A DNA stretch of 64,000 nucleotides. It comes from an uncultured Actinomycetes bacterium. Its GTDB lineage: Bacteria; Actinomycetota; Thermoleophilia; Gaiellales; JAICJC01. Both the position numbers and the translations under genes were made by a program. This document shows, one piece after another, positions 13,287 to 60,802 of this stretch. The stretch spans positions 24,756 through 88,755 of the forward strand of contig CAVTSO010000013.1 of the NCBI GenBank assembly GCA_963737445.1, written 5' to 3'. Under the pieces are notes generated by a model that saw only the letters and a list, made by a program, of their open reading frames with translations, had not been told where the DNA came from and ran no database searches. The number at the start of each line of letters is the position of its first letter. Position 1 is the stretch's first letter.

Positions 13287-13328
13287 AATCGTCAGCTTCT
13301 CCAAGCCGGGTTGCAGATGCGATCATCA

Positions 13329-17219: not shown

Positions 17220-17223
17220 GCCG

Positions 17224-17841: not shown

Positions 17842-17943
17842 CGCTCGACCTTTCGCTCGGCCTGGTGTCGATCACGTGGCGCGAATCGCCCAACTCCGGA
17901 CACGACCGTGTATCCGGCCGGCCGTCGCAGGGAAACGCGTGAC

Positions 17944-18522: not shown

Positions 18523-18690
18523 CACGACGCAGTATGCCACGGGTTCACAGGCCCTCCAAGGTGGGAGCAGAGGCATGGCCGGTCGGTCGCCGGCTCCGGT
18601 AACCGCGCTGAGCGCGGCACCGCCCATCGTCAACTCGTTTACTTTCCATGCGTTCACGACTGAAGGGTTCGTGCGTGTCGTCCGGGGAAG

Positions 18691-18763
18691 TACCCCCAAC
18701 GGGATTCGAACCCGTGTTGCCGCCTTGAAAGGGCGGAGGCCTAGGCCGCTAGCCGATGGGGGC
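18691..18763 (-). tRNA. tRNA-Glu (anticodon UUC)
   Basis: The reverse complement is GCCCCCATCGGCTAGCGGCCTAGGCCTCCGCCCTTTCAAGGCGGCAACACGGGTTCGAATCCCGTTGGGGGTA. It folds into a cloverleaf with a CTTTCAA anticodon loop. CCA is not encoded. Confidence 0.9.
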
Positions 18764-19087: not shown

Positions 19088-19160
19088 GGGCCGTTAGCTC
19101 AGCTGGTAGAGCAGGGGACTTTTAATCCCAAGGTCGCAGGTTCGATCCCTGCACGGCCCA
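19088..19160 (+). tRNA. tRNA-Lys (anticodon UUU)
   Basis: GGGCCGTTAGCTCAGCTGGTAGAGCAGGGGACTTTTAATCCCAAGGTCGCAGGTTCGATCCCTGCACGGCCCA. Canonical arms are present. CCA is not encoded. Confidence 0.9.
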
Positions 19161-29284: not shown

Positions 29285-29572
29285 GTGATGGCGGAGTACC
29301 GGATCACCTACTGGCGCGAGATCCCCTCGATGGTGACCGCCCGCGACGGTGCGGCCACGTCCAAGGCGGCGCTGCCCGGCCGCTTCCAGGAGGCCATCGA
29401 TGAGGCCGCCATGCGCCAGGGCATGGTCGGCTCCGACGCCTACCTGGAGCAGTGGCATCATGGAGAATGGGAGCGGGCGGACGGAACGCCCGACGAGCTG
29501 GTCGCCACTCTGTCGGAGCGGCTCGACAACGACTACGACGCGGCGCGCCTGGAATCGCTGCTGGAGGTGTGA
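29285..29572 (+). CDS. small protein, probably of the 'virulence factor' (PF13769-like) family that accompanies methyltransferase operons
   Basis: YRITYWREIPSMVTARDG...FQEAIDEAAM. Its stop overlaps the next start (TGATG). The family assignment is from memory and is tentative. Confidence 0.5.
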   Translation: MMAEYRITYWREIPSMVTARDGAATSKAALPGRFQEAIDEAAMRQGMVGSDAYLEQWHHGEWERADGTPDELVATLSERLDNDYDAARLESLLEV

Positions 29573-30465
29573 TGGGACAGATCGCGACACTGCTGGGAGA
29601 CACCCGGCCGGCGCTCAGCGACGGCGCCATCGGCACCATGCTGCAGGCGGCCGGTCTCATGCCCGGCGCCTCGCCCGAGATCTGGAACGTCGAGCGCGCC
29701 GATGCCATGCGCGTGATCCACACCGCCTACGCCGATGCCGGGGCGCGTCTGCTCACCACGAACACCTTCGGCGGCACCCGCCCCCGCCTCGCCCTGCACG
29801 GCCACGAGGATCGCGTGCACGAGCTGAACGAGGCCGGAGCCCGCATCGCCCGCGACGTGGCCGACGCCTGCGGTGCGCTGGTGCTCGGCAGCATCGGCCC
29901 TACCGGCGACCTGATGGAGCCGCTGGGGCTGCTCGGCCACAACGACGCCGTCGACCTGTTCGCCGAGCAGGCCGGCGGCCTGGCCGCCGGCGGCGCCCAC
30001 ATCCTGCTGTTCGAGACGTTCAGCGATCTGGGCGAGGTGCGGGCCGGCGTCGAGGGTGCGCGCCGTGCCGCACCCGACGTGCCCGTGGCCGTGACCATGA
30101 CCTTCGACCTGAAGGGCCATACGATGATGGGCGTCAGCCCGTCGCAGGCGCTGGCCGAGATATCCGCGCTCGATGTCGAGCTGATCGGCGGGAACTGCGG
30201 CAGCGGGCCCGACGAGATCGAGGCGGTGATGGTGACCATGTCCGCCGAGCGTCCGGACGGCGTGCTGCTGCTCGCCCAGAGCAACGCCGGCCTGCCGCAG
30301 CTGGTCGGCGACGAGTTCCGCTACGGCGGCACGCCCGAGGTGATGGCCGACTACGCCCTGCGCATGCAGGAGCTGGGTGTCGATGTGATCGGCTCATGCT
30401 GCGGCAGCACGCCGTCGCACACGGCAGCGATGCGCGAGGCGCTCGGCCTGCACGTGCAGACCTAG
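29572..30465 (+). CDS. homocysteine S-methyltransferase domain protein (stand-alone MetH N-terminal-like module)
   Basis: DGAIGTMLQ...TNTFGG...ETFSDL...GGNCGSGP...GSCCGSTP. The Zn-binding Cys, Cys-Cys pattern of the Hcy-binding barrel is present. Confidence 0.8.
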   Translation: MGQIATLLGDTRPALSDGAIGTMLQAAGLMPGASPEIWNVERADAMRVIHTAYADAGARLLTTNTFGGTRPRLALHGHEDRVHELNEAGARIARDVADACGALVLGSIGPTGDLMEPLGLLGHNDAVDLFAEQAGGLAAGGAHILLFETFSDLGEVRAGVEGARRAAPDVPVAVTMTFDLKGHTMMGVSPSQALAEISALDVELIGGNCGSGPDEIEAVMVTMSAERPDGVLLLAQSNAGLPQLVGDEFRYGGTPEVMADYALRMQELGVDVIGSCCGSTPSHTAAMREALGLHVQT

Positions 30466-30481
30466 CCTGATCAACCATCTA
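30466..30481. repeat. solo copy of the GATGGTTGATC terminal motif, on the minus strand directly after the ferredoxin stop
   Basis: CCTGATCAACCATCTA matches 13 of 15 positions of the right terminus of the element at 41250-41264. Confidence 0.4.
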
Positions 30482-30667
30482 GCCCTCGATCGTGATCGAC
30501 ATGGTCGGGCACGCGTCCGCGGCCGCCTCCACGTCGTCGCGCAGCGCCTCGTCCACGTCCGCCTGATAGCGCAGTAGCTGCGGCGACACCAGCTGGAACA
30601 CCTCCGGGCACTCGATCATGCACTGCCCGTGGTGTTGGCAGGTCTGCTCGTCGACCACCACCCTCAT
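30479..30667 (-). CDS. small ferredoxin (P450-associated type)
   Basis: 62 aa, MRVVVDEQTCQHHGQCMIECPEVF...ADACP. The ATG overlaps the P450 stop (ATGA). Confidence 0.75.
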   Translation of the reverse strand: MRVVVDEQTCQHHGQCMIECPEVFQLVSPQLLRYQADVDEALRDDVEAAADACPTMSITIEG

Positions 30668-40599: not shown

Positions 40600-41076
40600 A
40601 TGGAACAGGAGACGTCACAAGGGCGCTTCGCCGATGGCCTTGCAGAGCGCGAGCCGCTGGGCCCGCCGCTGATCGGGGCGCTGCTGCGCATGCCGGTCGA
40701 TGCCGTGCGGCGGCAGATGATCGAGCGGCTGCACGAGCACGGCTTCGCTGACATCGATCCGGCCCACCTGATCGTGCTGCGCTATCCCGGCCCGCAGGGT
40801 GAGCGCCCGTCCGATCTGGCCGCGCAGCTGGGCATGAGCAAGCAGGCGCTCAACTACCAGCTGGGGCAGCTCGAGCGGCGCGGCTACCTCGAGCGGCGTC
40901 CCGATCCTGAGGACATGCGTTCCCGGCGGATCGTGCTGACGCGGCGCGGCGTTGCCGCGGCCCACGTGATCCGTGACGCCGTGGCCGAGCTGGAGACCCT
41001 GTGGGAGCGGGAGCTGGGGGAGAAGCGCTACGCGCAGCTGCGCGGCCTGCTGGTCGAGCTGAATCGCGTGATCTAG
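40600..41076 (+). CDS. MarR family transcriptional regulator
   Basis: PSDLAAQLGMSKQALNYQLGQLERRGYLERRPDPEDMRSRRIVLTRRG. Confidence 0.85.
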   Translation: MEQETSQGRFADGLAEREPLGPPLIGALLRMPVDAVRRQMIERLHEHGFADIDPAHLIVLRYPGPQGERPSDLAAQLGMSKQALNYQLGQLERRGYLERRPDPEDMRSRRIVLTRRGVAAAHVIRDAVAELETLWERELGEKRYAQLRGLLVELNRVI

Positions 41077-41078
41077 CT

Positions 41079-41264
41079 GAGATGGTTGATCGGTTGTTCG
41101 CGAGCCTGGCCGCTGCGAACGGCTTGAAGTCGGAGGAGGCTGGGGTAGCTACGGCTGCGAACCGTCGTCTCCGTCCGCGATCTGCGTGATCGCAGATCGC
41201 TCATGACCGGCGCAAGGCGATGCCTTGCGCCTTGGACACCACGGAGATACCGATCAACCATCTC
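41079..41264. mobile_element. MITE-like 186-bp element, copy A: perfect 15-bp terminal inverted repeats and two internal 10-bp-stem hairpins
   Basis: The TIRs are GAGATGGTTGATCGG (41079-41093) and CCGATCAACCATCTC (41250-41264). The hairpins are GCGATCTGCG-tgat-CGCAGATCGC (41177-41200) and GGCGCAAGGC-gat-GCCTTGCGCC (41209-31). It carries no ORF. Confidence 0.6.
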
Positions 41265-43200
41265 GGTCGATCGACTCGGCCAGCAGTGTGGCCACGTCCG
41301 CCACCCGCAGCGTGCTGCCGCTGGTGCGGACGCCGTCGTCGAGCATCACGGTGCAGAACGGGCAGGCCACCGCCAGCGTCCCGGCGCCGGTCTCATCGGC
41401 CTGCCGCACCCGCTCCTCGTTGATGGCGCTGCCGCGCTCCTCCATCCACATGTGCGCGCCGCCGGCGCCGCAGCAGAACGTGCGCTTGCCGCTGCGCTCC
41501 ATCTCGACCGGCGTGCCCACCGCCGCCACCAGCTGCCGCGGATCCGCCGTCACGTCGTTGTGGCGCGCGAGGTAGCAGGAGTCGTGGTAGGTGATCTGGG
41601 TGTCCCCCGCCTTCGGCTCGATCCGGCCGTCGCGGACCAGCTCGGCCAGCAGCTCGGTGTGGTGCATCACCTCGTAGCGGCCGCCGAAGTCCGGGTACTC
41701 GTTGGCCAGCGTGTTGAAGCAGTGCGGGCAGCTGGCCACGATCTTCGTCACCCCTGAGCCGTTCAGCGTCTCGACGTTCTGCTCCGCGAAGGCCTGGAAC
41801 ACGTACTCGTTTCCCATCCGCCGGGCCGGGTCGCCGGTGCACGACTCGCGCGGGCCCAGGATCGCGAAGTCGACCCCGGCCGCCTGCAAGAGCTTTGCCG
41901 TCGACACCGCCGTCTGCCGGGCGCGCTCGTCGAACGAGGCGGCGCAGCCGACCCAGTAGAGCACCTCGGGCGCCGGGTCGCCCGGCTCGAGCACCGTCAC
42001 GCCCAGCCCCTGCGTCCAGTCGCCGCGCTCCTGCTGGGCCTTGCCCCAGGGGTTGGACGATCGCTCGACGTCCCGCAGCATCGGCTCGGCCTCCGCCGGG
42101 AACCGCGCCTCGGCCATCACCAGGTGGCGGCGCAGGTCGACGATGTGGTCGATGTGCTCGATCGAGACCGGGCACTCGTGGACGCAGGCGCCGCACGTGA
42201 CGCAGTCCCAGACCACGTCGTCGGTGACCGCGTTTGGCACCAGCGGCGGCGGATCGGCTCCCTCGGCACCGGAGAGCAGCTTCGGGCCCTGGTCGAGCAG
42301 GTGATCGCGCAGTCCCATGATCAGCAGCTTGGGCGACAGCTCCTTGCCGGTCGCATAGGCCGGGCAGACGTCCTGGCAGCGACCGCACTCGGTGCAGGTT
42401 GCGGTGTCCACCATCTGCTTCCAGGTCATGTCGGTGAGCGTGCCGGAGCCGAGCCGGATCTCGTCCTCCGGCACCTCCGGGTCGTCGAACACGAGCGGCT
42501 CGAGACGGCCGCGTGCGCGCGTTCGCCCGAAGAACACATTGACCACGGCGGTAATGATGTGCAGGTGCTTCGAGTAGGGCAGGTACGCCAGGAAGCTCAG
42601 GATCAGCAGCACGTGCGTCCACACGAACACGCGCTCGAGCACCTTCGTGCCATCGCCGCCGCCGAACAGGTTGGAGAGCGCGTTTGCGACCGGAGACCAC
42701 GACGCCGGCCACTCGTTCAGCCCCAGCGCGATCCGCGTGGCGTGCCACAGGAGCAGGGTGGTGACGATGCCCGCGATCAGGGCCAGGATGAAGTCGGCCT
42801 CGCCCATGTGGCTGCCCTCGAACCGCGCCGGCCGCTGCACCTTGCGGATGAAGAACGCCGCGCACACGCTCAGCAGCACCAGCAGCGCGAACAGGTCGAC
42901 CAGGAACGCGAACCAGCCCTGGTGGCCGAGCCAGGGCAACGTCGCGTCGCGATCGACGGCCGCGATCATCGCCATGATGATGGTCGGGAACAGCACGATG
43001 AATCCCCAGAAGATCAGCGCGTGCATCACCCCCGGGCCCAGCCGCTGCAGCAGCTTGCGCTGGCCGATCGCGACCACCGCCTCCTGGCGCAGGCGCTGCG
43101 GCACATCGTCGAACCTGGGCGCGGGCCTGCCGAGGCGCATGATCCGGACGAGCAGCCGGGCGCGACGGGCGAAGATGCCGCCGGCCACCGCCAGCGCCAC
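41254..43200 (-). CDS. membrane-anchored Fe-S oxidoreductase (EtfD/DgcB-like; heterodisulfide-reductase-related with CCG domains)
   Basis: N-terminal TM helices, two ferredoxin motifs (CTECGRCQDVCP, CVTCGACVHECP) and two CCG-type Cys-rich domains (..WVGCAAS.., ..TFCCGAGG..). The start is uncertain; I took GTG 43200. The tracked ORF's extension to 43500 overlaps etfA. Confidence 0.8.
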   Translation of the reverse strand: MALAVAGGIFARRARLLVRIMRLGRPAPRFDDVPQRLRQEAVVAIGQRKLLQRLGPGVMHALIFWGFIVLFPTIIMAMIAAVDRDATLPWLGHQGWFAFLVDLFALLVLLSVCAAFFIRKVQRPARFEGSHMGEADFILALIAGIVTTLLLWHATRIALGLNEWPASWSPVANALSNLFGGGDGTKVLERVFVWTHVLLILSFLAYLPYSKHLHIITAVVNVFFGRTRARGRLEPLVFDDPEVPEDEIRLGSGTLTDMTWKQMVDTATCTECGRCQDVCPAYATGKELSPKLLIMGLRDHLLDQGPKLLSGAEGADPPPLVPNAVTDDVVWDCVTCGACVHECPVSIEHIDHIVDLRRHLVMAEARFPAEAEPMLRDVERSSNPWGKAQQERGDWTQGLGVTVLEPGDPAPEVLYWVGCAASFDERARQTAVSTAKLLQAAGVDFAILGPRESCTGDPARRMGNEYVFQAFAEQNVETLNGSGVTKIVASCPHCFNTLANEYPDFGGRYEVMHHTELLAELVRDGRIEPKAGDTQITYHDSCYLARHNDVTADPRQLVAAVGTPVEMERSGKRTFCCGAGGAHMWMEERGSAINEERVRQADETGAGTLAVACPFCTVMLDDGVRTSGSTLRVADVATLLAESIDRDG

Positions 43201-43226
43201 CAGCAGCGCGATCAGGGCGACGGGCT

Positions 43227-44195
43227 CTATCCGGCGCCCGCCTTGCGCAGTTCGGCCGTGATCGCCGGGATCACCTCGTGCAGGTCGCCGATCACGGCGT
43301 AGTCGGCGTTGGCGATGATCGGCGCCTCCGGATCGACGTTGACCGCGATGATCCGCTTGGCGCCCTTGCAGCCGGCCATGTGCTGGGTGGCGCCGCTGAT
43401 GCCGCAGGCCAGGTACACCTCCGGCGCGATCTTGGTGCCGGTCTGACCGACCTGGTCGGTGTGCGACCGCCAGCCGGCGATAGTGACGGCCCGCGAGCAC
43501 CCGACGGCTCCGCCCAGCAGCGCCGCCAGCTCCTCGGCCGGTGCGAAGCCCTCCGGAGAGCCGGCGCCGCGCCCGCAGCTGACCACGAACTTGGCGTCCG
43601 CCAGGTTGACCCCGCCCTCGCTGCTCTGCTGCACGGTCTCGACCACCCGCACCACCAGGTCGGCTTCGCCCAGCGACGGCGAGAAGCGCTCGACGGCCGC
43701 CGGCGCACCGCCCACCTCGGCCGCCTCGACCGTGTGCGGCGCCACCGTCAGCAGCTTGACGGGGCCGTGCAGGCGCGCGTCCTCGAGCAGGCTGCCGCCC
43801 CAGCGGATGCGGGTCACGGTCAACGGGTCGCCCGCCTCTGCGGCGATGCAGTTCGCGGCCAGCGGCAGGTCGCCGATCGCCGCCGCGTGCGCCAGCACCT
43901 CGTTTCCGCGCTCGCTGCCGGCGGCCGCCACGGCCGACGGGGACAGCCGCTCGATCAGCTCGCCGATGCAGCGTGCCAATGCCACGGGCGCATGGGTGGC
44001 GAGCACCTCGTGGTCGGCGATGTGCGCGGTCGCCACCCCGTGGGCGCCCAGCGCGGCGGCGGCGTGCTCGGCGCCGGGACCGGCCAGCAGCGCGTGCAGC
44101 GGTGCGCCGCCGGCGATCTCACGGGTCAGTGCGATCGCCTGCAACGAGGCGTCGTCGGGCCGGCCGTCCTGATGCTCGACGTAGACCAGCGTCAT
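43227..44195 (-). CDS. etfA: electron transfer flavoprotein alpha subunit
   Basis: C-terminal FAD-binding signature ..VVSCGRGAG...GCSRAV...DQVGQTGTKIAPEVYLACGISGATQHMAG... The ATG overlaps the etfB stop (ATGA). Confidence 0.9.
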   Translation of the reverse strand: MTLVYVEHQDGRPDDASLQAIALTREIAGGAPLHALLAGPGAEHAAAALGAHGVATAHIADHEVLATHAPVALARCIGELIERLSPSAVAAAGSERGNEVLAHAAAIGDLPLAANCIAAEAGDPLTVTRIRWGGSLLEDARLHGPVKLLTVAPHTVEAAEVGGAPAAVERFSPSLGEADLVVRVVETVQQSSEGGVNLADAKFVVSCGRGAGSPEGFAPAEELAALLGGAVGCSRAVTIAGWRSHTDQVGQTGTKIAPEVYLACGISGATQHMAGCKGAKRIIAVNVDPEAPIIANADYAVIGDLHEVIPAITAELRKAGAG

Positions 44196-50066: not shown

Positions 50067-53051
50067 TCACCCGCGCTCCGTCAGGCCGCGCGTGTGCGCA
50101 TAGCTTGCCGCTTCAGTGCGGTTCGCGCAACCGGTCTTACGCAGAATGCTGCGGATGTGGTTTGCAGCCGTGTGCTCGCTGATGTGCAGCGTGCGGCCGA
50201 TCTCCCTGTTCGACCGGCCCTGCGCGACCAGGCGCAGGATCTCCGCTTCGCGCCCGGACAGGCCGTCGGGCAGCCGCGACACCGCCGGTCCGGCCGGCAG
50301 CAGCCCGCGGATGCGGCCCAGCAGGGCCGGCATACCGATCCGCTCGGCCAGGTCGGACGCCTCCGCCAGCGCGGCCTGCGCGGCCGCGTCGCCGGCCCGG
50401 CCCTGCGCGCCCAGCGTGCGCGCGTACTCGTAGTCGGAGTGCGCCAGCCAGGTGATCGCGCCCATGTCGCGGTTGTAGTCGATCGCGCGCTGCAGGTGCA
50501 GCTCCGCCAGCTCCAGCTCACCGTAGGCTGCCGCCAGGGTGCCCAGGTATCGCTCGGACGATCCGTAGCAGGCCACGCCGTGCCCGATCATCACGTTCCG
50601 CTCCGCGATCGACAGCAGCTCCCGGTAGACCTGCTCCGACAGATCGGCGTCGCCCACGGCGACGCAGGCGTCGGCGATGTAGGTCAGCGACCCCACCCAC
50701 AGCGCGTGCCGGTAGACATCGAGGCCGTCGCTCTGGATCAGCGCCAGCTGGGCGCGCGCCTCATCCAGCATCCCCAGCTCGGCCGTGAGCGCCGCCAACC
50801 CGGGGCGCCACGACCCGCCGCGCCGGTCGCCGCCGGCGAGCACCCGCACCACCGGCGCCAGCTCGGCCAGCCGTCCCTGCTCGCGGCGGATGCTGAACAT
50901 CTGCACGCCGTAGACCCCGGATGCGTCGCGCCCCGTCAGCAGCCGGCTCCACTCGCGTGAGCGCTCGGCTGCCTCCTCCGCCTCGGCCAGACGTCCTTCG
51001 CAGAGCGCGATCGCCGAGCGGTAGTGCTCGGCCACGTGGATGATGAACGGCTGGTGCATGCGCCGCGAGATCTCCAGCACCTCGGCCAGCTCGCGGCCGG
51101 CGGTGCGCAGGTCGCCCTTGCCGATCAGCGCCGTGATCCGCCACTCGGACGCCTCCGCCTGCGACTCGATGTCGCCCAGCTCCTCGGCGATGGTGCGGGC
51201 CTCGGCCAGCATCTCCAGCACCTCGTCGTGGGTGTTTGAGCCGCGTGCCCAGTAGCTGCGCATCAGCACCACGGACAGGCCGGGCCGGTAGTCCATGCGC
51301 CGCGCGATTGCGATCGCCTCGTCCCGCAGCTCGGCGCTGCGCTCGGACTCCCCCACGAGCGCGCGCGCCCGGGCCAACCCTGACAGCAGCAGCACGCGCA
51401 TCGTTGAGTCGCCGAGATCGAGCGCCGCCAGCGCCTCCTCCAGCAGCTCGATCGCGCCCTCGTCGAGCATCGCCACCCGCCAGCAGGCGGTCTCCACCCC
51501 GATCGCGGCGCGCGCCAGGAGATCCGGGTTGTGGAGCCGCCTCGCCGTCTCCGCGGCCGCCTGGAACGCCTCCAGCGAGTCGCCGGACTGGCCGGCCCGG
51601 TAATGGGCCGCCCCCAGCTCCAGCTCGATCTCGGCGTGCGCGGTCTCGTTGTCGACGCCCAGCTCGAGCGCAGTCTGCAGCGGGCCGACCGCCTCGCCGA
51701 ACGCCAGCGCGGCGTTGGCGGCGTCGGCCGCCCGCAGGTTGTACTCGACCGCCCGCTGGGGACCGTCGATGGGCGCGGCGGCGGCGAAGTGGTGGGCGAG
51801 GTCGGCCAGTCCGCGCGCCGTGTCGGCGGCGCCGGACGCCTCCATCGACTCCGCCACCTGCAGGTGCAGCTGCGCCCGCCGCAGGCCCGCCAGCCGGTCG
51901 TACAGGGCGCGGCGCACGAGCTCGTGGGAGAACCGGTAGCGCAGCTGCCTGGCCGGGATCTCCTCGATCATGCCGCTGCGCAGCGACTGCTCCAGCGCGG
52001 CCGACAGCGTGGCGTCGGTGAACCCGCCGCCGCGCAGCACGGACAGGTCGAACTCGGGCCCGGTCACCGCGGCCAGCTCCAGCACCAGTGCCGTCTCCGG
52101 CTGCAGCCGCGCCAGCCGCTGGTTGACCACCTCGCGCACGCTCTCGGGAGTGCCCAGGGCGCTCAGCGGCCGGGTCAGGATGGCGACGCCGTCCACGATC
52201 TCGAGCGCTCCCGTCTCCACCAGCTCCCGCCACAGCTCCGTGACCAGGAACACGTTGCCCTGGGTGAGGCTGGTGATGGCGCCCGCCAGCTCCGGTAGCG
52301 CAGGGCCCAGCGGCGCTCCGGCCGCGCGCTCGACGAACTCCGAGACCTGCTCGCCCGTGAGCGCGCCCACGCGCACCCGTACCACCCCCTCCGAGCGACG
52401 CATGTCGATCAGCGCCTCCGACAGCTCGGCCGGCACATCCGCCTCGGTGTCGCGGAACGTGGCGACCAGCAGCATGCGCGCCTCGGTGGCTCCGCCCGCG
52501 AGGTGCCGCAGCAGCAGCAGCGTCGGGGTGTCCGCCCAGTGCCCGTCCTCGAACACCAGCAGCAGCGGTCGCCGGCGACCGGCCGCCACCAGCAGGTCGC
52601 TGACGGCCGCGTTCAGGCGATGCCGCTCGGTGTCCTGGTCGGCCACGACCGGCTCCGGCAGGTCGCCGACGTGGCTGCGCAGGTCCGGCAGCAGCCGGGT
52701 CAGCTCGCCCCCGGCCGGCCCCAGGTCGTCGCGCAGCTCGGCCGGATCGCTGGCCCGCACCAGCTGGTCGAGCGCCTCCACGAACGGCCGGTAGGGGGTG
52801 CGCACCACGGCGTCGCAGGCGCCGTACAGCACCAGCGCGCCGTCCTTCGCAGCCTGGTGGGCGATCTCGCGCACCAGCCGGCTTTTGCCCGACCCGGGCT
52901 CGCCGCCGACCAGGGCGATGCGGCGGCCCTCGCTCTGCGCGCGCGGCAGCAGCGACCGCAGCGTGGCCATCTCCCTGGGACGGTCCACGAACGGGAAGGA
53001 CGGCTGCAGACGCAGCGGCCCGGGCAGCGCGGAGTGGGCGATGACGTCCAT
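50067..53051 (-). CDS. large ATP-binding LuxR-family regulator (LAL/MalT-like: AAA ATPase plus TPR-like repeats plus C-terminal LuxR HTH)
   Basis: Walker A GEPGSGKS. The C-terminal sequence LSGREAEILRLVAQGRSNREIGRTLHISEHTAANHIRSILRK. Confidence 0.85.
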   Translation of the reverse strand: MDVIAHSALPGPLRLQPSFPFVDRPREMATLRSLLPRAQSEGRRIALVGGEPGSGKSRLVREIAHQAAKDGALVLYGACDAVVRTPYRPFVEALDQLVRASDPAELRDDLGPAGGELTRLLPDLRSHVGDLPEPVVADQDTERHRLNAAVSDLLVAAGRRRPLLLVFEDGHWADTPTLLLLRHLAGGATEARMLLVATFRDTEADVPAELSEALIDMRRSEGVVRVRVGALTGEQVSEFVERAAGAPLGPALPELAGAITSLTQGNVFLVTELWRELVETGALEIVDGVAILTRPLSALGTPESVREVVNQRLARLQPETALVLELAAVTGPEFDLSVLRGGGFTDATLSAALEQSLRSGMIEEIPARQLRYRFSHELVRRALYDRLAGLRRAQLHLQVAESMEASGAADTARGLADLAHHFAAAAPIDGPQRAVEYNLRAADAANAALAFGEAVGPLQTALELGVDNETAHAEIELELGAAHYRAGQSGDSLEAFQAAAETARRLHNPDLLARAAIGVETACWRVAMLDEGAIELLEEALAALDLGDSTMRVLLLSGLARARALVGESERSAELRDEAIAIARRMDYRPGLSVVLMRSYWARGSNTHDEVLEMLAEARTIAEELGDIESQAEASEWRITALIGKGDLRTAGRELAEVLEISRRMHQPFIIHVAEHYRSAIALCEGRLAEAEEAAERSREWSRLLTGRDASGVYGVQMFSIRREQGRLAELAPVVRVLAGGDRRGGSWRPGLAALTAELGMLDEARAQLALIQSDGLDVYRHALWVGSLTYIADACVAVGDADLSEQVYRELLSIAERNVMIGHGVACYGSSERYLGTLAAAYGELELAELHLQRAIDYNRDMGAITWLAHSDYEYARTLGAQGRAGDAAAQAALAEASDLAERIGMPALLGRIRGLLPAGPAVSRLPDGLSGREAEILRLVAQGRSNREIGRTLHISEHTAANHIRSILRKTGCANRTEAASYAHTRGLTERG

Positions 53052-53182
53052 AGTCAGGATTGATCATTGCACCCGGCGATCACAGGCGCACGAAGTGGAT
53101 CAATCCCGGTCATGCGATCCCCTACCGCCTTCGATACCGTCAGCCTCCATAGGCACAAGCGATACAGACCATCGGAGGTCAC

Positions 53183-54577
53183 ATGAGCACGATCGCAACA
53201 CTCGCCGCGGAAGCTCGCTCGGCTCTTGCCGGCAGCTTCAACGGCACCCTGACGGGACCGGACGACGCCGGATACGACGAGGCGCGCTCGGTCTACAACG
53301 CGATGATCGACCGGCGGCCGGCCCTGGTGGCCCGCTGCACCTCGGCCGCCGATGTGGCGGCGGTGATCGGCTTCGCCCGCTCGCAGAATGCGCTGATCGC
53401 AGTCCGCGGCGGCGGCCACAACGGCGGCGGCCTGGGCGTCGTCGATGACGGCGTCGTCATCGACCTGGCCGGGATCAACAGCATCGACGTCGATGCCGCC
53501 GCCCGCACGGTGCGGGTCGGCGGCGGCTGCGTCTGGAAGGATGTCGACGCCGCCACGCACGAGGTGGGCGGCACCGTTCCCTGCGGCATCATCGGCACCA
53601 CCGGCGTCGGCGGGCTGACCCTGGGCGGCGGGATCGGGCACATCGCCCGCTCCGGCGGCCTGACGGTCGACAACCTGCTCGAGGCCGAGGTCGTTCTGGC
53701 AGACGGTTCGATCGTGCGCGCATCGGCCGACGAGAACCCGGAGCTGTTCTGGGCGCTCCGCGGCGGCGGCGGCAACTTCGGCGTGGTCACGGCGTTCACG
53801 TTCAAGATGCAGCCGGTGAGCATGGTCGTGGCCGGTCCCACCTTCTGGTCGCTGGACGACGCGGCTGAGGTGATGCGGGCCTACCGGGAGTTCCTCCCGG
53901 CGGCTCCGCGCGAGCTGAACGGCTGGTTCGCGTTCGTGACCGTGCCGCCCGTTCCGGTGTTCCCCGAGGAGCTGCACGGCCGCAAGATGGCGGCCATCGT
54001 GTGGTGCCACACGGGCAGCGAGGAGGAGGCCGCTGCGGCGATGGCGCCGATGCTGGAGGCGGTCGAGCCGGTGCTGCACGCGGCCGGCCCGATGCCGTTC
54101 CCGGTGCTGAACGGGTTCTTCGACGCGCTCTACCCGAAGGGCGACCAGTGGTACTGGAGGGCCGACTTCGTGCGCGAGCTGCCTGACGCCGCCATCGAGC
54201 AGCACGTCAGGTTCGCGAACGAGATGCGCCCCGGCCAGTCGACCATGCATATGTACCCGATCGATGGGGCCGTGCATGACGTCGGCGCGGGTGACACCGC
54301 GTTCAGCTACCGCGACGTGACCTGGGCGCAGGTGATCGTGGGCGTCGACCCCGACCCGGCCAACGCCGAGGCGATCAAGCAGTGGACGATCGACTACTGG
54401 GATGCCACGCACCCCTACTCGGCCGGCGGCGCCTACGTCAACTTCATGATGGACGAAGGCCAGGAGCGGGTGAAGGCCACGTACCGGGACAACTACGACC
54501 GGCTGGCCCGGGCCAAGGCGCAGTACGACCCGCACAACGTCTTCCGCGTCAACCAGAACATCAAGCCCGCAAGCTGA
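53183..54577 (+). CDS. FAD-linked oxidase (FAD_binding_4 plus BBE domain)
   Basis: ..AVRGGGHN..GGGCVW..LTLGGGIGH.. and the C-terminal ..YVNFM...YDPHNVFRVNQNI BBE tail. Confidence 0.85.
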   Translation: MSTIATLAAEARSALAGSFNGTLTGPDDAGYDEARSVYNAMIDRRPALVARCTSAADVAAVIGFARSQNALIAVRGGGHNGGGLGVVDDGVVIDLAGINSIDVDAAARTVRVGGGCVWKDVDAATHEVGGTVPCGIIGTTGVGGLTLGGGIGHIARSGGLTVDNLLEAEVVLADGSIVRASADENPELFWALRGGGGNFGVVTAFTFKMQPVSMVVAGPTFWSLDDAAEVMRAYREFLPAAPRELNGWFAFVTVPPVPVFPEELHGRKMAAIVWCHTGSEEEAAAAMAPMLEAVEPVLHAAGPMPFPVLNGFFDALYPKGDQWYWRADFVRELPDAAIEQHVRFANEMRPGQSTMHMYPIDGAVHDVGAGDTAFSYRDVTWAQVIVGVDPDPANAEAIKQWTIDYWDATHPYSAGGAYVNFMMDEGQERVKATYRDNYDRLARAKAQYDPHNVFRVNQNIKPAS

Positions 54578-54645
54578 GGCAGGCCGTGGCCGGGGGGTGC
54601 GTCGGGCACCCCCCGGCCCTTGGCCATGCGGCGTAGGCTTCCATC

Positions 54646-55716
54646 ATGGATCCCCAGCCAGCCGGCATCAGCCGCGAGGAGCTGCAGCTCGCCGCCCGCA
54701 ACCACGGCATGCTGCTGGAGGCGCTGCGGCACGAGATCACACCGGTGGGACTGCACTACCTGCTGGTGCACTACGACATCCCGGCGGTGGGCGAGGAGTG
54801 GAGGCTGCGGGTGGACGGCCGCGTGCGTCGTCCCCTGGAGCTGGATCTGGACGCCATCCGCGCCCTCCCGTCCGTGACCCTGCCGGTCACGATGGAGTGC
54901 GCCGGCAACGGCCGCGCGACGATGGAGCCGCACGTGACCAGCCAGCCGTGGATCCTGGAGGCGGTGGGCACCGGTCAGTGGACGGGTACGCCGCTGGCGC
55001 CGCTGCTGGAGCAGGCCGCCCTGCTGGACGACGCCGTCGAGATCGTCTTCGAGGGCCTCGATCGCGGCCTGGAGGGCGGCGATGAGCAGACCTACGGGCG
55101 CAGCCTCACGATCGAGCAGGCGGTCAACGACGGCGCGATCCTGGCCTACGAGCTGAACGGCGCCCCATTGCCGTCGCAGCACGGCTACCCGCTGCGGCTG
55201 TTGGTGCCCGGCTGGTACGGCATGACCAACGTCAAGTGGCTGTCATCGATCAGGGCCGTCAGCGAGCCGTTCGCGGGCTACCAGCAGGCGCAGTCCTACC
55301 GCTGGCGCCGGGAAGAGCACGAGGCCGGAAGGCCGGTCACGCGCATGATGCCGCGGGCGCTGATGGCGCCGCCCGGCATCCCCGACTTCATGAGCCGCGA
55401 GCGCACCGTTTCGGCCGCAGAGCCGGTTTCGGTGCAGGGGCGGGCCTGGTCAGGTTGGGGGCCGATCGAGCTGGTGGAGTTCTCGGCCGACGGAGGCGAG
55501 AGCTGGCGGGCGGCGGAACTGGGCGACCAGGGCAGCCCGCACGTCTGGCGGGGCTGGTCGGTCAGCTGGCACCCCGCTGGGGCGGGTCGCTACGAGCTCT
55601 GCTGCCGCGCCACCGACGCGACCGGCGCCACCCAGCCGCTGCACCCGGAGTGGAACCTGGGCGGCTACGAGAACAACGCCGTCCAGCGCGTCCCGGTCAC
55701 TGTTAAGGATGGTTGA
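54646..55716 (+). CDS. sulfite-oxidase-family molybdopterin oxidoreductase (Oxidored_molyb plus Moco dimerisation domain)
   Basis: Moco-Cys motif TMECAGNGR and ..GYPLRLLVPGWYGMTNVKWL.. The stop TGA lies inside the repeat terminus GATGGTTGAT. Confidence 0.85.
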   Translation: MDPQPAGISREELQLAARNHGMLLEALRHEITPVGLHYLLVHYDIPAVGEEWRLRVDGRVRRPLELDLDAIRALPSVTLPVTMECAGNGRATMEPHVTSQPWILEAVGTGQWTGTPLAPLLEQAALLDDAVEIVFEGLDRGLEGGDEQTYGRSLTIEQAVNDGAILAYELNGAPLPSQHGYPLRLLVPGWYGMTNVKWLSSIRAVSEPFAGYQQAQSYRWRREEHEAGRPVTRMMPRALMAPPGIPDFMSRERTVSAAEPVSVQGRAWSGWGPIELVEFSADGGESWRAAELGDQGSPHVWRGWSVSWHPAGAGRYELCCRATDATGATQPLHPEWNLGGYENNAVQRVPVTVKDG

Positions 55717-55933
55717 TTCCACGAGCTACGCGCGGCGCGCCGTCCGCGATCTGCGTCATCGCAGATCGCTCCCGACCGGCGCAAGCCATGGCTTGCGCCC
55801 AGGGGTCTGGGACACGCTGGACGCCACGATCGTCCTTGGCCAGGACATGCCCAGCCTGCCCTGCGGACGCTCTCGACGTCCAGCGCGGCCCATCCTGCGC
55901 CCCGCATCCACGCATCCCGTGGAACCAACCATC
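55706..55933. mobile_element. MITE-like element, copy B (~228 bp): imperfect termini and the same two hairpins as copy A
   Basis: The termini are GGATGGTTGATTCC (55707-55720) and GGAACCAACCATC (55921-55933). The hairpins are GCGATCTGCG-tcat-CGCAGATCGC (55746-69) and GGCGCAAGCC-at-GGCTTGCGCC (55778-99). The shared core is CCGTCCGCGATCTGCGT.ATCGCAGATCGCTC..GACCGGCGCAAG. Confidence 0.55.
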
Positions 55934-55938
55934 GATAG

Positions 55939-57126
55939 TCAGATCGCCTCGCCGGTATCCCGGTCGAAGAAGTGCAACCGGCGGTTGTCCACCTGCAGGG
56001 TGATCGGCTGTCCCCGCTGAGCTGACGTGCGGGGGTTCAGCCGCGCCACGAACGAGGTCTGCGCGCCGCCGTCGACCTCGGGCAACAGCGCGGCGTCTGC
56101 GGCCAGGTCGATCGTGTCGTCGGTGATCACCGGCGGTGCGTCCACGCCGAAGTGCACGTAGACCTCCGAGCCCATCGCCTCACGAATGTCGACGACCACC
56201 CGGATGTCCGACCCTTCCAGGCGGTCGTTGATGAACTGCGGATCCTCGATGTCTTCCGGCCGGATGCCCAGCACCACCTTGCTGCCGTCCCGGGCGGCAA
56301 GCGCCGGCCGCTGCTGGAACGTCTCCTCGGGCACGCGCAGGCTGATGCCTGCGAACTCGACCGCGCCGCCGCTCTCGGAGCGGCGCACCACAGCGTCGAC
56401 CATATTCATGGCCGGCGAGCCGATGAACCCGGCCACGAACAGGTTGGCGGGACGGTCGTACATGTCCTGGGGGGCGTCCACCTGCTGCAGGACGCCGCGG
56501 TTCATCACGGCCACCCTGTCGCCCATCGTCATCGCCTCGGTCTGGTCGTGGGTGACGTAGATCATGGTCGTGCCCAGGTCGCGCTGGATCCGCGAGATCT
56601 CGGTGCGCATCTGGACGCGCAGCTTGGCATCCAGGTTCGACAGCGGCTCGTCCATCAGGAACGCCTGCGGTTCGCGCACGATCGCGCGGCCCATCGCCAC
56701 CCGCTGCCGCTGGCCCCCCGAGAGAGCCCGTGGCTTCTTCTTGAGCTGATCCTCGAGCCCGAGCGTCCTCGCCGTCTCGCGCACGCGGCGGTCGATCTCC
56801 TTGCGCGGCACCTTGCGCAGCTTCAGGCCGAAGGCCATGTTGTCGAAGCAGGTCATGTGCGGGTAGAGGGCGTAGTTCTGGAACACCATCGCCAGGTCGC
56901 GGTTTTTGGCCTCCACGTCGTTGATGACGGCGTCGCCGAGGCGGATGCTGCCGCCGGTGATCTCCTCCAGCCCGGCCACCATCCGCAGCAGCGTGGTCTT
57001 GCCGCAGCCGGACGGGCCGACCAGCACCATCAGCGTGCCGTCCTCGATCGTGAGGTCGACGGAGCGCACGGCCTCCGTGCCGTCCTCGTAGACCTTGGTC
57101 ACCTCGTCGAAGCCGATCTGCGCCAT
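55939..57126 (-). CDS. orphan ABC transporter ATP-binding protein of the MalK/UgpC/MsiK sugar-importer type
   Basis: Walker A GPSGCGKTT, signature LSGGQRQR, Walker B FLMDEPLS and a C-terminal TOBE-like domain. No permease or binding-protein gene is adjacent. Confidence 0.9.
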   Translation of the reverse strand: MAQIGFDEVTKVYEDGTEAVRSVDLTIEDGTLMVLVGPSGCGKTTLLRMVAGLEEITGGSIRLGDAVINDVEAKNRDLAMVFQNYALYPHMTCFDNMAFGLKLRKVPRKEIDRRVRETARTLGLEDQLKKKPRALSGGQRQRVAMGRAIVREPQAFLMDEPLSNLDAKLRVQMRTEISRIQRDLGTTMIYVTHDQTEAMTMGDRVAVMNRGVLQQVDAPQDMYDRPANLFVAGFIGSPAMNMVDAVVRRSESGGAVEFAGISLRVPEETFQQRPALAARDGSKVVLGIRPEDIEDPQFINDRLEGSDIRVVVDIREAMGSEVYVHFGVDAPPVITDDTIDLAADAALLPEVDGGAQTSFVARLNPRTSAQRGQPITLQVDNRRLHFFDRDTGEAI

Positions 57127-57173
57127 TGCGCCCCCATAATACGGTCGCACCGAGTCCACGAGGAGGAGCAGCG

Positions 57174-58340
57174 ATGAGCGCACAGCCGGCCGCCGACGTG
57201 GCCGTTGTCGGATTGGGCGGCCTGGGCAGCGCCGCGGCATGCTGGGCGGCGCGGATGGGCGCGCGGGTGGTCGGCCTCGAGCAGTTCCCGCTCGGCCACG
57301 ATCGGGGCGGGTCGCACGACCATTCGCGGTTGATCCGGCTGGCCTACCACCACCCGGACTACGTGCGGCTGGCGGCCACCGCGTACGACGTGTGGGACGA
57401 GGTCGAGCGCGCCGCCGGCGAGCAGCTGGTGCACCTGACGGGAGGCATCGACATATTCGGCTCGGACGCGCCGCTGGGCCGCGACGTATACGCGGCCGGC
57501 ATGATCGAGGGCGGCGCCGAGGTGGAGCTGCTGACCGGTGCGGACGTGTCGGCCCGCTGGCCGCAGCTGGCGCCGCCCGGCGACGTGCCTGCTCTTGCCC
57601 ACGCGCGGGCCGGGTTCGTCGCCAGCGAGCGCGCCACCGCCGCCCACCAGCGGATGGCGCGGGCGGCCGGCGCGGAGCTGCTGGACGGGTGTGCCGTCAC
57701 CGCCGTGCGACCCTCCGGCCGCGACCTGCTGGTGGAGGCGGACGGGCGCACGATTCGCTGCCGGTCGGTGATTCTCTCGGCGGGAGCGTGGCTGAACGAG
57801 CTCCTGGAGCCGCTGGGCGCGAGCCTGCCGCTCACGATCAGCCAGGAGCAGATCTCCTACCTGGCCGCCGACGACCTCGATCGCTTCCGTCCCGCCCGGT
57901 TCCCGGTCTGGATCTGGCACGGCGCCCGCACGTACTACGGGTTCCCGGCATTCGGTGAGCGGGCGGTCAAGGCGGCGGAGGACCAGGGCGGTGCCGAGGT
58001 GACCGCGCGCACGCGCAGCTTCGACCCCGACCCGGACGCGACCGAGCGCCTGCACCGCTTCGTCTCGGGATTGATTCCCGGGCTGGGGCCGCCGGTGCTG
58101 ACCAAGACCTGCCTGTACACGATGACCCCCGACCGCGACTTCGTGATCTCGGCGCTGCCGCAGCACCCCGGCATCGTGGCGGCGGTGGCCGACGGCCACG
58201 GCTTCAAGTTCGCCTCGCTGCTGGGCAGGATGCTGGGCGAGATCGCCCTGGGCCGCACTCCCTCGCCGGACCTGGAGCGGTTCCGTGCCGACCGGCCGGC
58301 GCTGGCGCCCGGCCGCGACCCCAGTCCCGCCCGCGTGTAG
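57174..58340 (+). CDS. monomeric sarcosine oxidase / N-methyltryptophan oxidase-like FAD oxidoreductase
   Basis: VAVVGLGGLGSAAA dinucleotide fold. TKTCLYTMTPDRDF resembles the covalent-FAD Cys region of the MSOX/SolA family. The ATG follows GAGGAGGAG. Confidence 0.8.
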   Translation: MSAQPAADVAVVGLGGLGSAAACWAARMGARVVGLEQFPLGHDRGGSHDHSRLIRLAYHHPDYVRLAATAYDVWDEVERAAGEQLVHLTGGIDIFGSDAPLGRDVYAAGMIEGGAEVELLTGADVSARWPQLAPPGDVPALAHARAGFVASERATAAHQRMARAAGAELLDGCAVTAVRPSGRDLLVEADGRTIRCRSVILSAGAWLNELLEPLGASLPLTISQEQISYLAADDLDRFRPARFPVWIWHGARTYYGFPAFGERAVKAAEDQGGAEVTARTRSFDPDPDATERLHRFVSGLIPGLGPPVLTKTCLYTMTPDRDFVISALPQHPGIVAAVADGHGFKFASLLGRMLGEIALGRTPSPDLERFRADRPALAPGRDPSPARV

Positions 58341-58349
58341 GAGCTCGCC

Positions 58350-58748
58350 GTGCCACCACTCTTCCGCTCGCTCGACTTCCTCTACGTTCCCGCCGCCGAC
58401 GTGGACGACGCCGCCCGCCGCTACGTCGACCAGCTCGGCGCCGAGCTGGTCTGGAAGGTGCGCGGCATGGGCACCGTCGTCGCCTGCCTGCGCGTTTCGG
58501 GGTCAGGCCCGGCGATCCTGCTCAGCGGCCATCTCGAGGGATCGGCGCCGATCCTCGTCTACCGGGTCGAGAGCTACGGCCAGGCGGTGCGCGAGCTCGA
58601 GCGGCGCGGTGTGGGAGCGCTGCACCGGCTCGAGATCCCGCACGGCCCCTGCGCCAGCTTCACGGCCGCGGGCGGGCAGCGGATCGCGGTGTACGAGCTG
58701 GTGCGCCCCGGTGCGGCCGCGCACTTTGACGGCCGTATGGACGACTAG
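58350..58748 (+). CDS. VOC (glyoxalase/bleomycin-resistance fold) family protein
   Basis: 132 aa with a beta-alpha-beta-beta-beta-like pattern (LDFLYVPAADVDDAARRYVDQLGAELVW...). GTG start. The family call is tentative. Confidence 0.55.
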   Translation: MPPLFRSLDFLYVPAADVDDAARRYVDQLGAELVWKVRGMGTVVACLRVSGSGPAILLSGHLEGSAPILVYRVESYGQAVRELERRGVGALHRLEIPHGPCASFTAAGGQRIAVYELVRPGAAAHFDGRMDD

Positions 58749-60802
58749 CGCTGCCGCGCGAACGCCGCCCAGTCGCCGTACCGGAACACCTCGCGCAGGC
58801 CGGGATCGGCGGACAGCGCCGCAACCGCCCGCGGCGTCGTCTTCGTGTTCACCAACAGGTAGCGGACGTGGAAACGGTCGAGGATGGCCGCGCGCGCGGA
58901 CGGCGACGTGCCCGGCTCAAGCGCGATGTTGACCGCCCGCTTGCGCGCCACCGGCATGTTGCGCGGCTCGCCCCGTGCCCGCTCCAGCGGCAGCGCCATC
59001 GGGTCGACCGTGGCCTCGCCCGCCAGCTGGTAGCCGATGTACGCCTCCGCCAGCACCACGGGGAACGGCGCACCGTCGTGCTGGCGGAAGAACCCGATTA
59101 CCGGCTCGGGCAGCCGCGGCTGCGCCTCGCTGACGCCCGGCCCGTGCCGCAGGTCGGAACCCACTTCGGTCCGCTGCGCCCGCACGGACCCCGCGATCAG
59201 GGCGGCCGCGAGCAGGACAACAGCGCCCAGCGCGGCCGGTGCGGCGGCGTTCATCCGGGCGTTGCGCCCGCGCATCGCCGGCCAGGCCGACACCGCGACC
59301 CCCGCCACCGTCAGCGCGGCGATCGCGAAGGTGAGCGGATCGCCCTCGGGCACGTACGCCTGGTAGCCGAGTGAGGCCACCGCCACGGCCAGCGCGACCG
59401 GGACGGCCATTCTGCCGCCCGTCACGGCTGCCACCTCCACCACCACGATGGCCGCGGTCAGCCCCCAGGGCAGCCCGCTGCGCGGGAACCGCTTGACCTG
59501 GCCGTAGCCGAGCACCGAGGTGAGCAGCGCCGGCACCCACGGGAACGAACAGAGCACCAGCGCGGCGCCCATGATCGCGGCCGGCACCGCGTGGCGCCGC
59601 CGGAACAGCAGCATCAGGGGCACGACGGACAGCACCCCAAAGGCGACTTCGGGCCGGTCGTCGAGCATCCAGCCGGCCCGGGCTATGACCGGGTTCCCGT
59701 GCACCACCACGTACACGGTGTCCAGCACCGGTGGCCGCGGCAGCCTCGTCCCGCCGCGCAGTGCGACCGCCCAGATCACACCGTAGATGACGCCGGTCAG
59801 CGCGACCGACGCACCCAGCAGGCGCCAGCCCCGCAGCATCACGATCACGACCCCCGCGAGGCAGGCCAGCACCAGCACCGTGTAGCTGGCGTGGATCAGC
59901 GTGACGGCAAGCACACCGAGCAGCACCGCCCGGTTCAGCCGCCGGTCGAACCCGCCGCGGGCGCCGGCGGCGAGCAGGGCCAGAAGGGCGGGGATGAGGA
60001 CGTAGAACGTGAACTCGGGCGGCTGCTGCAACACCTCCAGCGACCCCCGCGCGAGCGCATCCCAGCAGGCCAGGAACGCGGCGGCGGCGCCGACCGGGCG
60101 GCCCGCCGCGGCCGAGCCCAGGGCGTAGGCGGCCAAGGGCAGCAGCAGCGCGCACCCGGGCGCCAGGCTGGAGTAGGCCGCCGATGGCTCCGACCCAGTG
60201 ATCCGGATCGCGACCGCCTCGATCGCGTGCAGCACCGGCACCACGTAGCCGGCGTGGGGTGAGCCGTGCCATACCGAGGACAGGCCGCTGAGCGTCAGGT
60301 GCGGCAGGTCGAGCAGCTTGCGCACGCGCCCGGCATGGAACAGCGCGTCGCCGTGCAGGACGGTCTCGTAACGCGATGCCAGCACCGCCATCAGCGCACC
60401 GGCCGCGGCCACGCCTGCCAACTGCACGCCGCTGCCGGACGTGTGGATGCGCGGGGTCGACGCGGCCAGCGCGACGGGGCAGGCCACTCCCACGAGCAGC
60501 GCCAGCGCAGTCAGCGGCAGGCCCACGATCAGCGCCGCCATCAGCGCCAGTGACCAAACGGCGCAGCCCAGCGGGATCGCCGCCGCCAGCAGCACCGGCG
60601 CCTCCAGCTGCTCGTCCACGCCCAGGACGCGCGCGCAGGCAAGGCCGGGCACCAGCAGCACACCCAGCAGGGCGACGGCCAGCGGCAGGCCCAGCGGCAG
60701 CACCTGTGCGGCGCCACGAAGCACCAAGAGGGCGGCCGCCAGCGCCGCCACCAGCAGGGCCGCTCGGATCAGGAACCCGCGGTCGGGCAGCGCCGGCCTC
60801 AT
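58745..60802 (-). CDS. large polytopic membrane protein with C-terminal extracytoplasmic domain (function unknown; glycosyltransferase-C-like architecture)
   Basis: More than 12 hydrophobic segments over ~520 aa, then a ~150-aa soluble tail. I could not assign a family. Confidence 0.65.
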   Translation of the reverse strand: MRPALPDRGFLIRAALLVAALAAALLVLRGAAQVLPLGLPLAVALLGVLLVPGLACARVLGVDEQLEAPVLLAAAIPLGCAVWSLALMAALIVGLPLTALALLVGVACPVALAASTPRIHTSGSGVQLAGVAAAGALMAVLASRYETVLHGDALFHAGRVRKLLDLPHLTLSGLSSVWHGSPHAGYVVPVLHAIEAVAIRITGSEPSAAYSSLAPGCALLLPLAAYALGSAAAGRPVGAAAAFLACWDALARGSLEVLQQPPEFTFYVLIPALLALLAAGARGGFDRRLNRAVLLGVLAVTLIHASYTVLVLACLAGVVIVMLRGWRLLGASVALTGVIYGVIWAVALRGGTRLPRPPVLDTVYVVVHGNPVIARAGWMLDDRPEVAFGVLSVVPLMLLFRRRHAVPAAIMGAALVLCSFPWVPALLTSVLGYGQVKRFPRSGLPWGLTAAIVVVEVAAVTGGRMAVPVALAVAVASLGYQAYVPEGDPLTFAIAALTVAGVAVSAWPAMRGRNARMNAAAPAALGAVVLLAAALIAGSVRAQRTEVGSDLRHGPGVSEAQPRLPEPVIGFFRQHDGAPFPVVLAEAYIGYQLAGEATVDPMALPLERARGEPRNMPVARKRAVNIALEPGTSPSARAAILDRFHVRYLLVNTKTTPRAVAALSADPGLREVFRYGDWAAFARQR

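Follow-up and report, generated by a model that had tools for sequence, protein, structure and literature searches.

What is a pair of adjacent hairpins that occurs twice in one stretch of DNA, and why does its second hairpin stay paired when one of the base pairs differs between the copies? The question is raised by a 64-kb stretch (the window) from an uncultured Actinomycetes bacterium of the order Gaiellales (NCBI GenBank assembly GCA_963737445.1, contig CAVTSO010000013.1, positions 24,756 to 88,755 of the forward strand), in which copy A lies at 41080-41263 and copy B at 55707-55934. [quoted passage not shown] Their identity as MITEs is held with high confidence, and a structural constraint on the hairpin pair with fair confidence. 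The anatomy of the elements, their family, parent IS, insertion context and conservation of pairing are all observed in the sequences compared below. An earlier note on the window, in which both copies were described, did not identify them as MITEs of an IS982-type insertion sequence, and no description of these elements was found in the literature searched.

Anatomy of the two copies

Both copies hold two hairpins separated by an 8-nt linker:

41080 to 41263, plus strand: copy A, a complete 184-nt MITE of subfamily A with one hairpin cassette
41177 to 41200, plus strand: hairpin 1 of copy A, GCGATCTGCG-TGAT-CGCAGATCGC, with a 10-bp stem and the loop TGAT
41201 to 41208, plus strand: linker of copy A, TCATGACC, unpaired and conserved within cassette types
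41209 to 41231, plus strand: hairpin 2 of copy A, GGCGCAAGGC-GAT-GCCTTGCGCC
55707 to 55934, plus strand: copy B, a 228-nt MITE of subfamily B in its one-cassette form
55746 to 55769, plus strand: hairpin 1 of copy B, GCGATCTGCG-TCAT-CGCAGATCGC, with a 10-bp stem and the loop TCAT
55770 to 55777, plus strand: linker of copy B, TCCCGACC
55778 to 55799, plus strand: hairpin 2 of copy B, GGCGCAAGCC-AT-GGCTTGCGCC

The window holds exactly two matches to a 32-nt core pattern, at 41171-41202 and 55740-55771, where shuffled sequences give an expectation of 0, and a covariance model run with its filters off found no third copy in the window. The common core that the earlier note had claimed was borne out as a gap-free block of 46 nt with 93% identity. 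Its two statements on the hairpins were also correct: hairpin 1 is the same in both copies except for one loop base (TGAT or TCAT), and at the ninth pair of hairpin 2, copy A has G:C where copy B has C:G. Because a 2-nt loop cannot form, hairpin 2 of copy B folds with nine pairs and the loop CATG, the changed pair being the one that closes the loop. Folded as DNA, the 62-nt cores reach -26.6 kcal/mol (copy A) and -24.7 kcal/mol (copy B), with z of -7.7 and -6.7, and the core folds equally well on both strands (-25 to -27 kcal/mol, z -6 to -7.7). The whole elements are predicted to form rods with paired termini (z -7.5 for copy A and -6.2 for copy B), and the open reading frames (ORFs) across both copies are short chance frames.

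Copy A ends in perfect repeats of 14-15 nt, AGATGGTTGATCGG (41080-41093) and CCGATCAACCATCT (41250-41263), and aligns at 81-87% with subfamily-A copies in metagenome-assembled genomes (MAGs) of Gaiellales. The terminal repeats of copy B, GGATGGTTGATTCCACG and CGTGGAACCAACCATCG, are 17 nt long with one internal mismatch, and the outermost base is substituted at both ends. These termini had been called degenerate. They do depart from the subfamily consensus AGATGGTTGATTCCACG / CGTGGAATCAACCATCT at three positions, but copy B is not a degraded copy A; its identity to the elements at loci L082, L015, L047, L039, L102, L061 and L040 is 88-94%. Similarly, the right arm of copy B is indeed longer than that of copy A, as had been described, but this is the normal one-unit form of subfamily B.

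A family of elements with an optional cassette

Scanning one genome per species with the exact hairpin-1 pattern, hairpin 2 being left free, gave at least 109 loci, and the same hairpin unit is present in 73 of them and in at least 16 assemblies of Gaiellales or Thermoleophilia. The exact pattern yields 80 oriented units; a covariance model extends the set to 103 units (85 distinct), including hairpin-1 variants outside the reach of the pattern. Single genomes hold many copies, with at least 19 loci in SMAG_U6862, at least 15 in SMAG_U15821 and at least 11 in SMAG_U11270, and the window itself is syntenic with a contig of Gaiellales SMAG_U15821 at about 95% identity. One locus, L060, lies on a contig binned as Kofleriaceae (SMAG_U6870) and is 99.7% identical over 3.5 kb to L034 of Gaiellales SMAG_U6862; it is probably mis-binned. 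A blastn search of the plasmid collection gave no match to copy A, and viral contigs held 0 matches to the hairpin-1 pattern.

The hairpin units lie inside elements whose two ends are inverted repeats starting with AGATGRTTGAT. Among the related loci, 55 elements with paired terminal repeats measure 119-377 nt. Both terminal repeats were found, at 420 nt or less, for 86 of the 103 cassettes; another 13 are interrupted by contig ends and four have a decayed end. None of the 103 units checked lies outside this MITE family. The elements fall into three or more backbones whose arms cannot be aligned with one another (copy A is of subfamily A, copy B of subfamily B), and a single element may hold 0, 1, 2 or 3 units, the backbone of copy B existing also in a two-unit form. 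This variable number indicates that the unit is an optional cassette of 54 nt, composed of hairpin 1, the 8-nt linker and hairpin 2. For instance, cassette-free elements lie at L064 4421-4544 and L013 5459-5577, with copies in L065 and L084. A short tag stands ahead of the cassette; in subfamilies A and B it is CCGTCC, and other elements have CATTC, CACTC or GCTTC.

At L025 (7464-7524), hairpin 2 is kept and hairpin 1 has been lost exactly between two short CCGG repeats, a slippage deletion. Contigs ending inside the repeats are found at L002, L011, L017, L019, L021, L026, L084, L090 and L091; since short-read MAG contigs often end in these repeats, they are a cause of frequent assembly breaks in Gaiellales MAGs.

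The elements have terminal inverted repeats, a small size without a transposase gene and many dispersed copies. In addition, the ends of subfamilies B and C are common to an autonomous IS, and elements are present or absent between relatives. They satisfy the definition of MITEs (PMC3184786) except for a readable target duplication.

Conservation of pairing in the cassette

Pairing of the stems is clearly maintained. Among 49 distinct units collected with hairpin 2 free in the search, 96.7% of the hairpin-2 cells are paired and 8 of 11 pairs of that hairpin have changed on both sides. In the covariance-model units, 98.1% of the stem cells are standard pairs, compared with 27-44% for slid partners, and 11 of 21 pairs are compensated (8 of 11 in hairpin 2 and 3 of 10 in hairpin 1, where the changes are GC>CG, CG>UA and UA>CG). 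The covariation score was reached by 0 of 500 shuffles. A larger alignment with a covariation test had been proposed in the earlier note, and its outcome is that pairing is kept. The ninth pair of hairpin 2, by which copies A and B differ, is G:C in 49 units, C:G in 19 and U:A in 10. A divergent unit at L137, in a metagenome contig picked by its terminal repeat alone, is compensated in both stems. Mismatches in the ten outermost-numbered pairs of hairpin 2 (pairs 1 to 10) are confined to single-copy variants, whereas compensated variants are multi-copy and occur in several genomes; most copies belong to one of about ten cassette types with perfect pairing.

Selection had been proposed to act on the structure rather than on the primary sequence. 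The first half of this proposal agrees with the maintained pairing. The words "rather than" are too strong, because in three backbones and at least 16 genomes there is hardly any variation in hairpin 1 (stem and TNAT loop) or in the linker, TC(A/C)(T/C)GA(C/T)C. The loop of hairpin 2 is free to vary, far more than its stem, a comparison that within cassette types is suggestive only, as the stems defined type membership. The structure had also been suggested to act either as an RNA hairpin or as a DNA palindrome. The fold is kept, but nothing points specifically to RNA, because wobble pairs are no commoner than A:C mismatches (6 G:U-type cells and 10 A:C-type cells).

Strong predicted folds together with covariation might suggest a stand-alone structured small RNA gene, or a cis-regulatory RNA, present in two copies. 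Such an identity is highly improbable. The copies are dispersed by the dozen in each genome inside elements bounded by inverted repeats, their orientation is variable, and their position differs between genomes that are about 95% identical. A promoter scan gave nothing at either copy, and no terminator was found at either. Membership of an Rfam 15 family was rejected, as only two tRNAs in the window are reported at gathering scores; at E <= 10, nothing was matched at copy A and two matches at copy B were at chance level.

The parent insertion sequence

A metagenome scan with the terminal repeat of subfamilies B and C alone gave 120 loci, about 22 of which are elements of 976-1216 bp, or fragments of them, with the same ends. 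Most copies measure 976-1023 bp and three measure 1166-1216 bp. They carry repeats of 17-19 nt and a single ORF, which encodes a DDE transposase of 289-316 aa. The proteins score 163, 150 and 160 bits against NCBIfam NF033520 (IS982 family; cut-off 130) and reach E 1e-17 to 1e-20 against Pfam DDE_Tnp_1. The ends of subfamilies B and C (AGATGRTTGATTCCACG) are the ends of these IS982-type elements. Environmental data are rich in this transposase clade, at least 7826 homologues reaching E <= 1e-30, and four identical 987-bp copies of the IS lie in one contig of 2.66 Mb. Among the genome loci, a search for IS copies gave no long repeats within any single MAG.

The IS982 family is described in ISfinder as having elements of about 1 kb with one ORF and terminal inverted repeats, and direct repeats of 3-9 bp are listed for it. 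The parent found here agrees with the family in a transposase that scores above the NCBIfam cut-off, in its length, in its single ORF and in its terminal inverted repeats; it differs in that the direct repeats were not seen.

The other metagenome loci are MITEs of 52-382 nt (mode about 165 nt), rods with a central hairpin. In this sample, selected by its terminal repeats, the double-hairpin cassette hardly occurs (two weak matches in 463 kb), indicating that it is a lineage-specific cargo and not part of the IS.

Besides the cassette, the wider set of IS982-type MITEs has a central hairpin of very variable sequence, framed by conserved GGACGCAGGG and CCGAGGACGC. It is seen in the metagenome at L115, L129, L152, L165, L172, L174, L207 and others, and in Gaiellales at L005, L006, L013 and others, and constitutes a second case in the family of structure retained despite sequence change. 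At the lower end of the size range, minimal elements of 52-67 nt (L119 1663-1714, L150 1681-1747 and L204 3466-3519) consist of little beyond the two terminal repeats round a short loop and keep the CT/AG flanks.

Insertion sites and gene ends

Full IS copies are flanked as CT/AGATG…CATCT/AG, the slashes marking the element boundaries, in 19 of 19 cases. The flanking C and T are present at 80-89% of metagenome ends and at 50-55% of Gaiellales ends, and the terminal A of the element at 86-99%. Because CTAG is its own reverse complement, a duplication is indistinguishable from a target half-site. Duplication of TA or of CTAG is disfavoured, since the terminal A stands at 86% where the flanking T stands at 50%. 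IS5, a relative, inserts into CTAG and duplicates it (PMC11894529). The parent IS resembles IS5 in that every copy is bracketed by CTAG, and differs in its terminus, AGATG, and in a duplication size that the palindromic site makes unreadable.

In the window, CTAG occurs 25 times where 173 would be expected, a seven-fold under-representation. By a strict test, 5 of the 25 sites coincide with gene stops (six gene ends), and about three more are borderline. As CTAG is rare in a genome of 70% G+C and a sizeable share of its occurrences are TAG stops, elements that target it would end up on gene ends. Among inbound gene ends, 55 of 56 stop between -15 and +18 nt from an element terminus, which is itself used or overlapped by 35 of them; the TAG stop of 16 gene ends is formed by the flanking T and the AG of the element. 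Both copies in the window lie in this way between their neighbours:

40600 to 41076, plus strand: MarR-family gene, ending 3 nt before copy A, with its stop TAG within CTAG
41254 to 43500, minus strand: CCG/4Fe-4S oxidoreductase gene, with its stop (TCA, 41254-41256) within the right terminal repeat of copy A
54646 to 55716, plus strand: molybdopterin oxidoreductase gene, with its stop (TGA, 55714-55716) within the left terminal repeat of copy B
55939 to 57240, minus strand: MalK-like ABC ATPase gene, its end 5 nt past copy B
30468 to 30483, minus strand: solo terminal repeat from the same family, minus-strand sequence CTAGATGGTTGATCAG (CTGATCAACCATCTAG)

The solo repeat fills the entire 13-nt spacer between two convergent stops, the TAG of an ORF at 29452-30465 (plus strand) and the stop of a small ferredoxin gene (minus strand); it is a lone end or else what is left of an element since lost. 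Ten of the 25 CTAG sites cluster at 12839-18749, in a stretch of slightly lower G+C (0.66-0.70) with two tRNA genes (18691-18763, minus strand; 19088-19160, plus strand). This segment may be acquired or differently evolving.

The position at gene ends raises the question of a host RNA function, in which the cassette would be a stable 3'-end stem-loop pair (a terminator-like block, an insulator or an exonuclease shield) and host selection would keep its pairing. Of 36 classified elements, 32 have one or more gene 3' ends beside them; the neighbouring genes are convergent for 15 elements, tandem for 17 and divergent for four. With stops within a few nt of the termini, read-through transcripts must include the hairpins, whereas empty sites have convergent stops 3-20 nt apart and little or no hairpin. 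The variability of the hairpin-2 loop relative to its stem also fits, and REP (repetitive extragenic palindromic), BOX, bcr1 and SPRITE repeats have been linked to transcript-end roles (PMC3184786, PMC3733652). Nevertheless, this explanation is rather unlikely. An intrinsic terminator was rejected, as a terminator scan gave no terminator-like site at either copy. No T run follows either hairpin on either strand, the sequence after hairpin 2 being TTGGAC or CAGGGG and that after hairpin 1, on the other strand, GGACGG. G:U cells as rare as A:C cells are unlike typical structured RNAs. The orientation of the cassette relative to genes varies (12 same, 5 opposite), cassette-free elements occupy the same kind of site, and the location is explained by CTAG targeting, with no function required. 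From the lack of a wobble excess, the occurrence of both orientations and the absence of a U run after the hairpins, the constraint looks strand-symmetric, acting either on DNA or on RNA from both convergent genes.

Mobility and exchange of cassettes

Locus L039 is about 95% identical to positions 50820-58814 of the window. A subfamily-B element lies upstream of the gene at 54646-55716 in L039 and downstream of it in the window, each site being filled in one of the two and empty in the other. Four further filled and empty pairs were found in related genomes. Elements at the same locus in related genomes also carry different perfect cassette types and numbers (L023 vs L031, L006 vs L002 and L065 vs L011), indicating that copies exchange sequence. 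The reading of the ninth pair as a double substitution in place has therefore to be abandoned: elements at one locus exchange whole cassette types, and the difference between copies A and B is that of two types carried by two subfamilies.

Exchange of this kind opens the way to an explanation with no selection, in which a mutation in one arm of a near-palindrome is carried over to the other by intrastrand template switching at replication, gene conversion among the many copies replaces damaged cassettes by intact ones, and matched changes on both arms result. It agrees with the frequent exchange of perfect types between elements at one locus, with the dominance of about ten well-paired types, which implies few independent events, and with the absent wobble bias, which fits a process at the DNA level. 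It is nonetheless improbable. The invariant sequence of hairpin 1, its asymmetric TNAT loop and the unpaired linker are left unexplained while the arms diverge, as is the freely varying loop of hairpin 2. Moreover, decayed single-copy variants exist, so that correction would be too inefficient to erase them.

Alternatively, the cassette could be a nested REP-like unit, a tagged palindrome that a tyrosine (HUH) transposase would recognise in single-stranded form and that inserted at the palindromic centre of the MITE (GTCC/GGAC). Its presence in 0-3 copies in at least three unrelated backbones, a short conserved tag that recalls the CGTC/GTAG tags of REPs (PMC3733652), and the resemblance of hairpin 1 plus linker to a sequence-specific site would be in line with this. 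REPs and REPINs with their REP-associated tyrosine transposases (RAYTs) (PMC3733652) are likewise short palindromes of high G+C at the 3' ends of genes, preferentially between convergent ones, with a short unpaired tag next to the stem and conserved pairing. The hairpins here differ in that they are never alone, always lying inside MITEs, and in that the tag is not constant (CCGTCC, CATTC, CACTC, GCTTC); the features of CGTC REPs (8-9-bp stems from A/T, CCA tail) are missing as well. On these grounds, REP membership was rejected. A nested unit of this type is very unlikely for further reasons: comparison of filled and empty cassette sites did not give clean insertions, tblastn with RAYT and IS200 queries produced no match at E < 0.1 in the roughly 630 kb sampled, and recombination between subfamilies explains the distribution equally well.

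How the elements may spread and what the fold may do

For IS982-derived MITEs with a structured cassette, the following sequence of events is proposed. An IS982-type DDE transposase, acting in trans, would recognise the terminal inverted repeats, as the common ends suggest; the recognised repeat would be AGATGGTTGATTCCACG for subfamily B, the first 11 nt of which are common to subfamily A. Insertion would take place into CTAG-like sites, a preference that the MITEs themselves probably have in common with the full IS copies, and the element termini would supply TAG or TGA stops. In one Gaiellales lineage, the MITEs would have come to carry their 0-3 cassettes with both stems Watson-Crick paired, the variants that spread always having matched changes on both arms, and cassettes would be exchanged between copies by recombination or gene conversion. 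The constraint would then fall on an intramolecular fold, equal on either strand, which may be a DNA fold-back or cruciform, or the RNA of both convergent transcripts. A sequence-specific site may be provided by hairpin 1 and the linker, and hairpin 2 may contribute a stem whose role is structural alone.

Several observations weigh against this origin. The same backbones often occur without a cassette (at least seven such elements in 567 kb), so the cassette is not needed for spread or for transposition of the IS982 type. The transposase gene is absent from the window and from the 73 Gaiellales loci, and the IS is linked to the MITEs by identical ends and flanks, not by co-occurrence in one genome. 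Subfamily A, to which copy A belongs, has only the first 11 terminal nt in common with the IS, and no IS with the full subfamily-A terminal repeat was present among the loci examined. Direct repeats of 2-8 nt are not evident once the effects of the palindromic CTAG are allowed for, and none of the five comparisons of filled and empty sites is a clean insertion, as 3-20 nt between the stops are replaced.

The near-invariance of hairpin 1 and the linker allows a further, doubtful suggestion, that they are a recognition site for a protein such as an HUH enzyme or a host DNA- or RNA-binding protein. The hairpin pair would in that case be an independently selected module, either a nested REP-like selfish unit or a two-way transcript-end signal for convergent genes, which might have colonised IS982-type MITEs in one Gaiellales lineage and spread by conversion.

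Relation to known repeats and significance

The IS982-derived elements resemble the bacterial MITEs ERIC, Correia/NEMIS, RUP and bcr1 (PMC3184786) in being shorter than 400 bp and non-coding, in their terminal inverted repeats, in their many dispersed intergenic copies, in folding as a long rod and in having ends in common with an autonomous IS. Structure-preserving compensatory changes have also been described in bcr1 (PMC3184786). They differ from these MITEs in that no target duplication is readable as a direct repeat, in that they lie almost exactly on stop codons, and in their 0-3 double-hairpin cassettes. BOX elements of Streptococcus pneumoniae offer the closest match in design, with two constant arms and a variable number of middle modules of about 45-55 nt, a stable predicted structure and a non-autonomous nature; as there is no sequence relationship, and the host phylum and the presumed transposase are different, this resemblance is architectural only. 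The double-hairpin repeats are a fairly ordinary kind of bacterial repeat, but a real one.

Their description gives a name and a probable transposase to an abundant repeat family of Gaiellales and Thermoleophilia, common and barely cultured soil Actinomycetota. Strong covariation in what is a mobile DNA repeat warns against diagnosing an RNA gene from covariation alone. At high G+C, targeting of CTAG would steer insertions onto TAG stops, where the element ends act as replacement stops, and the two together provide a simple reason for the harmless build-up of these elements between convergent genes.

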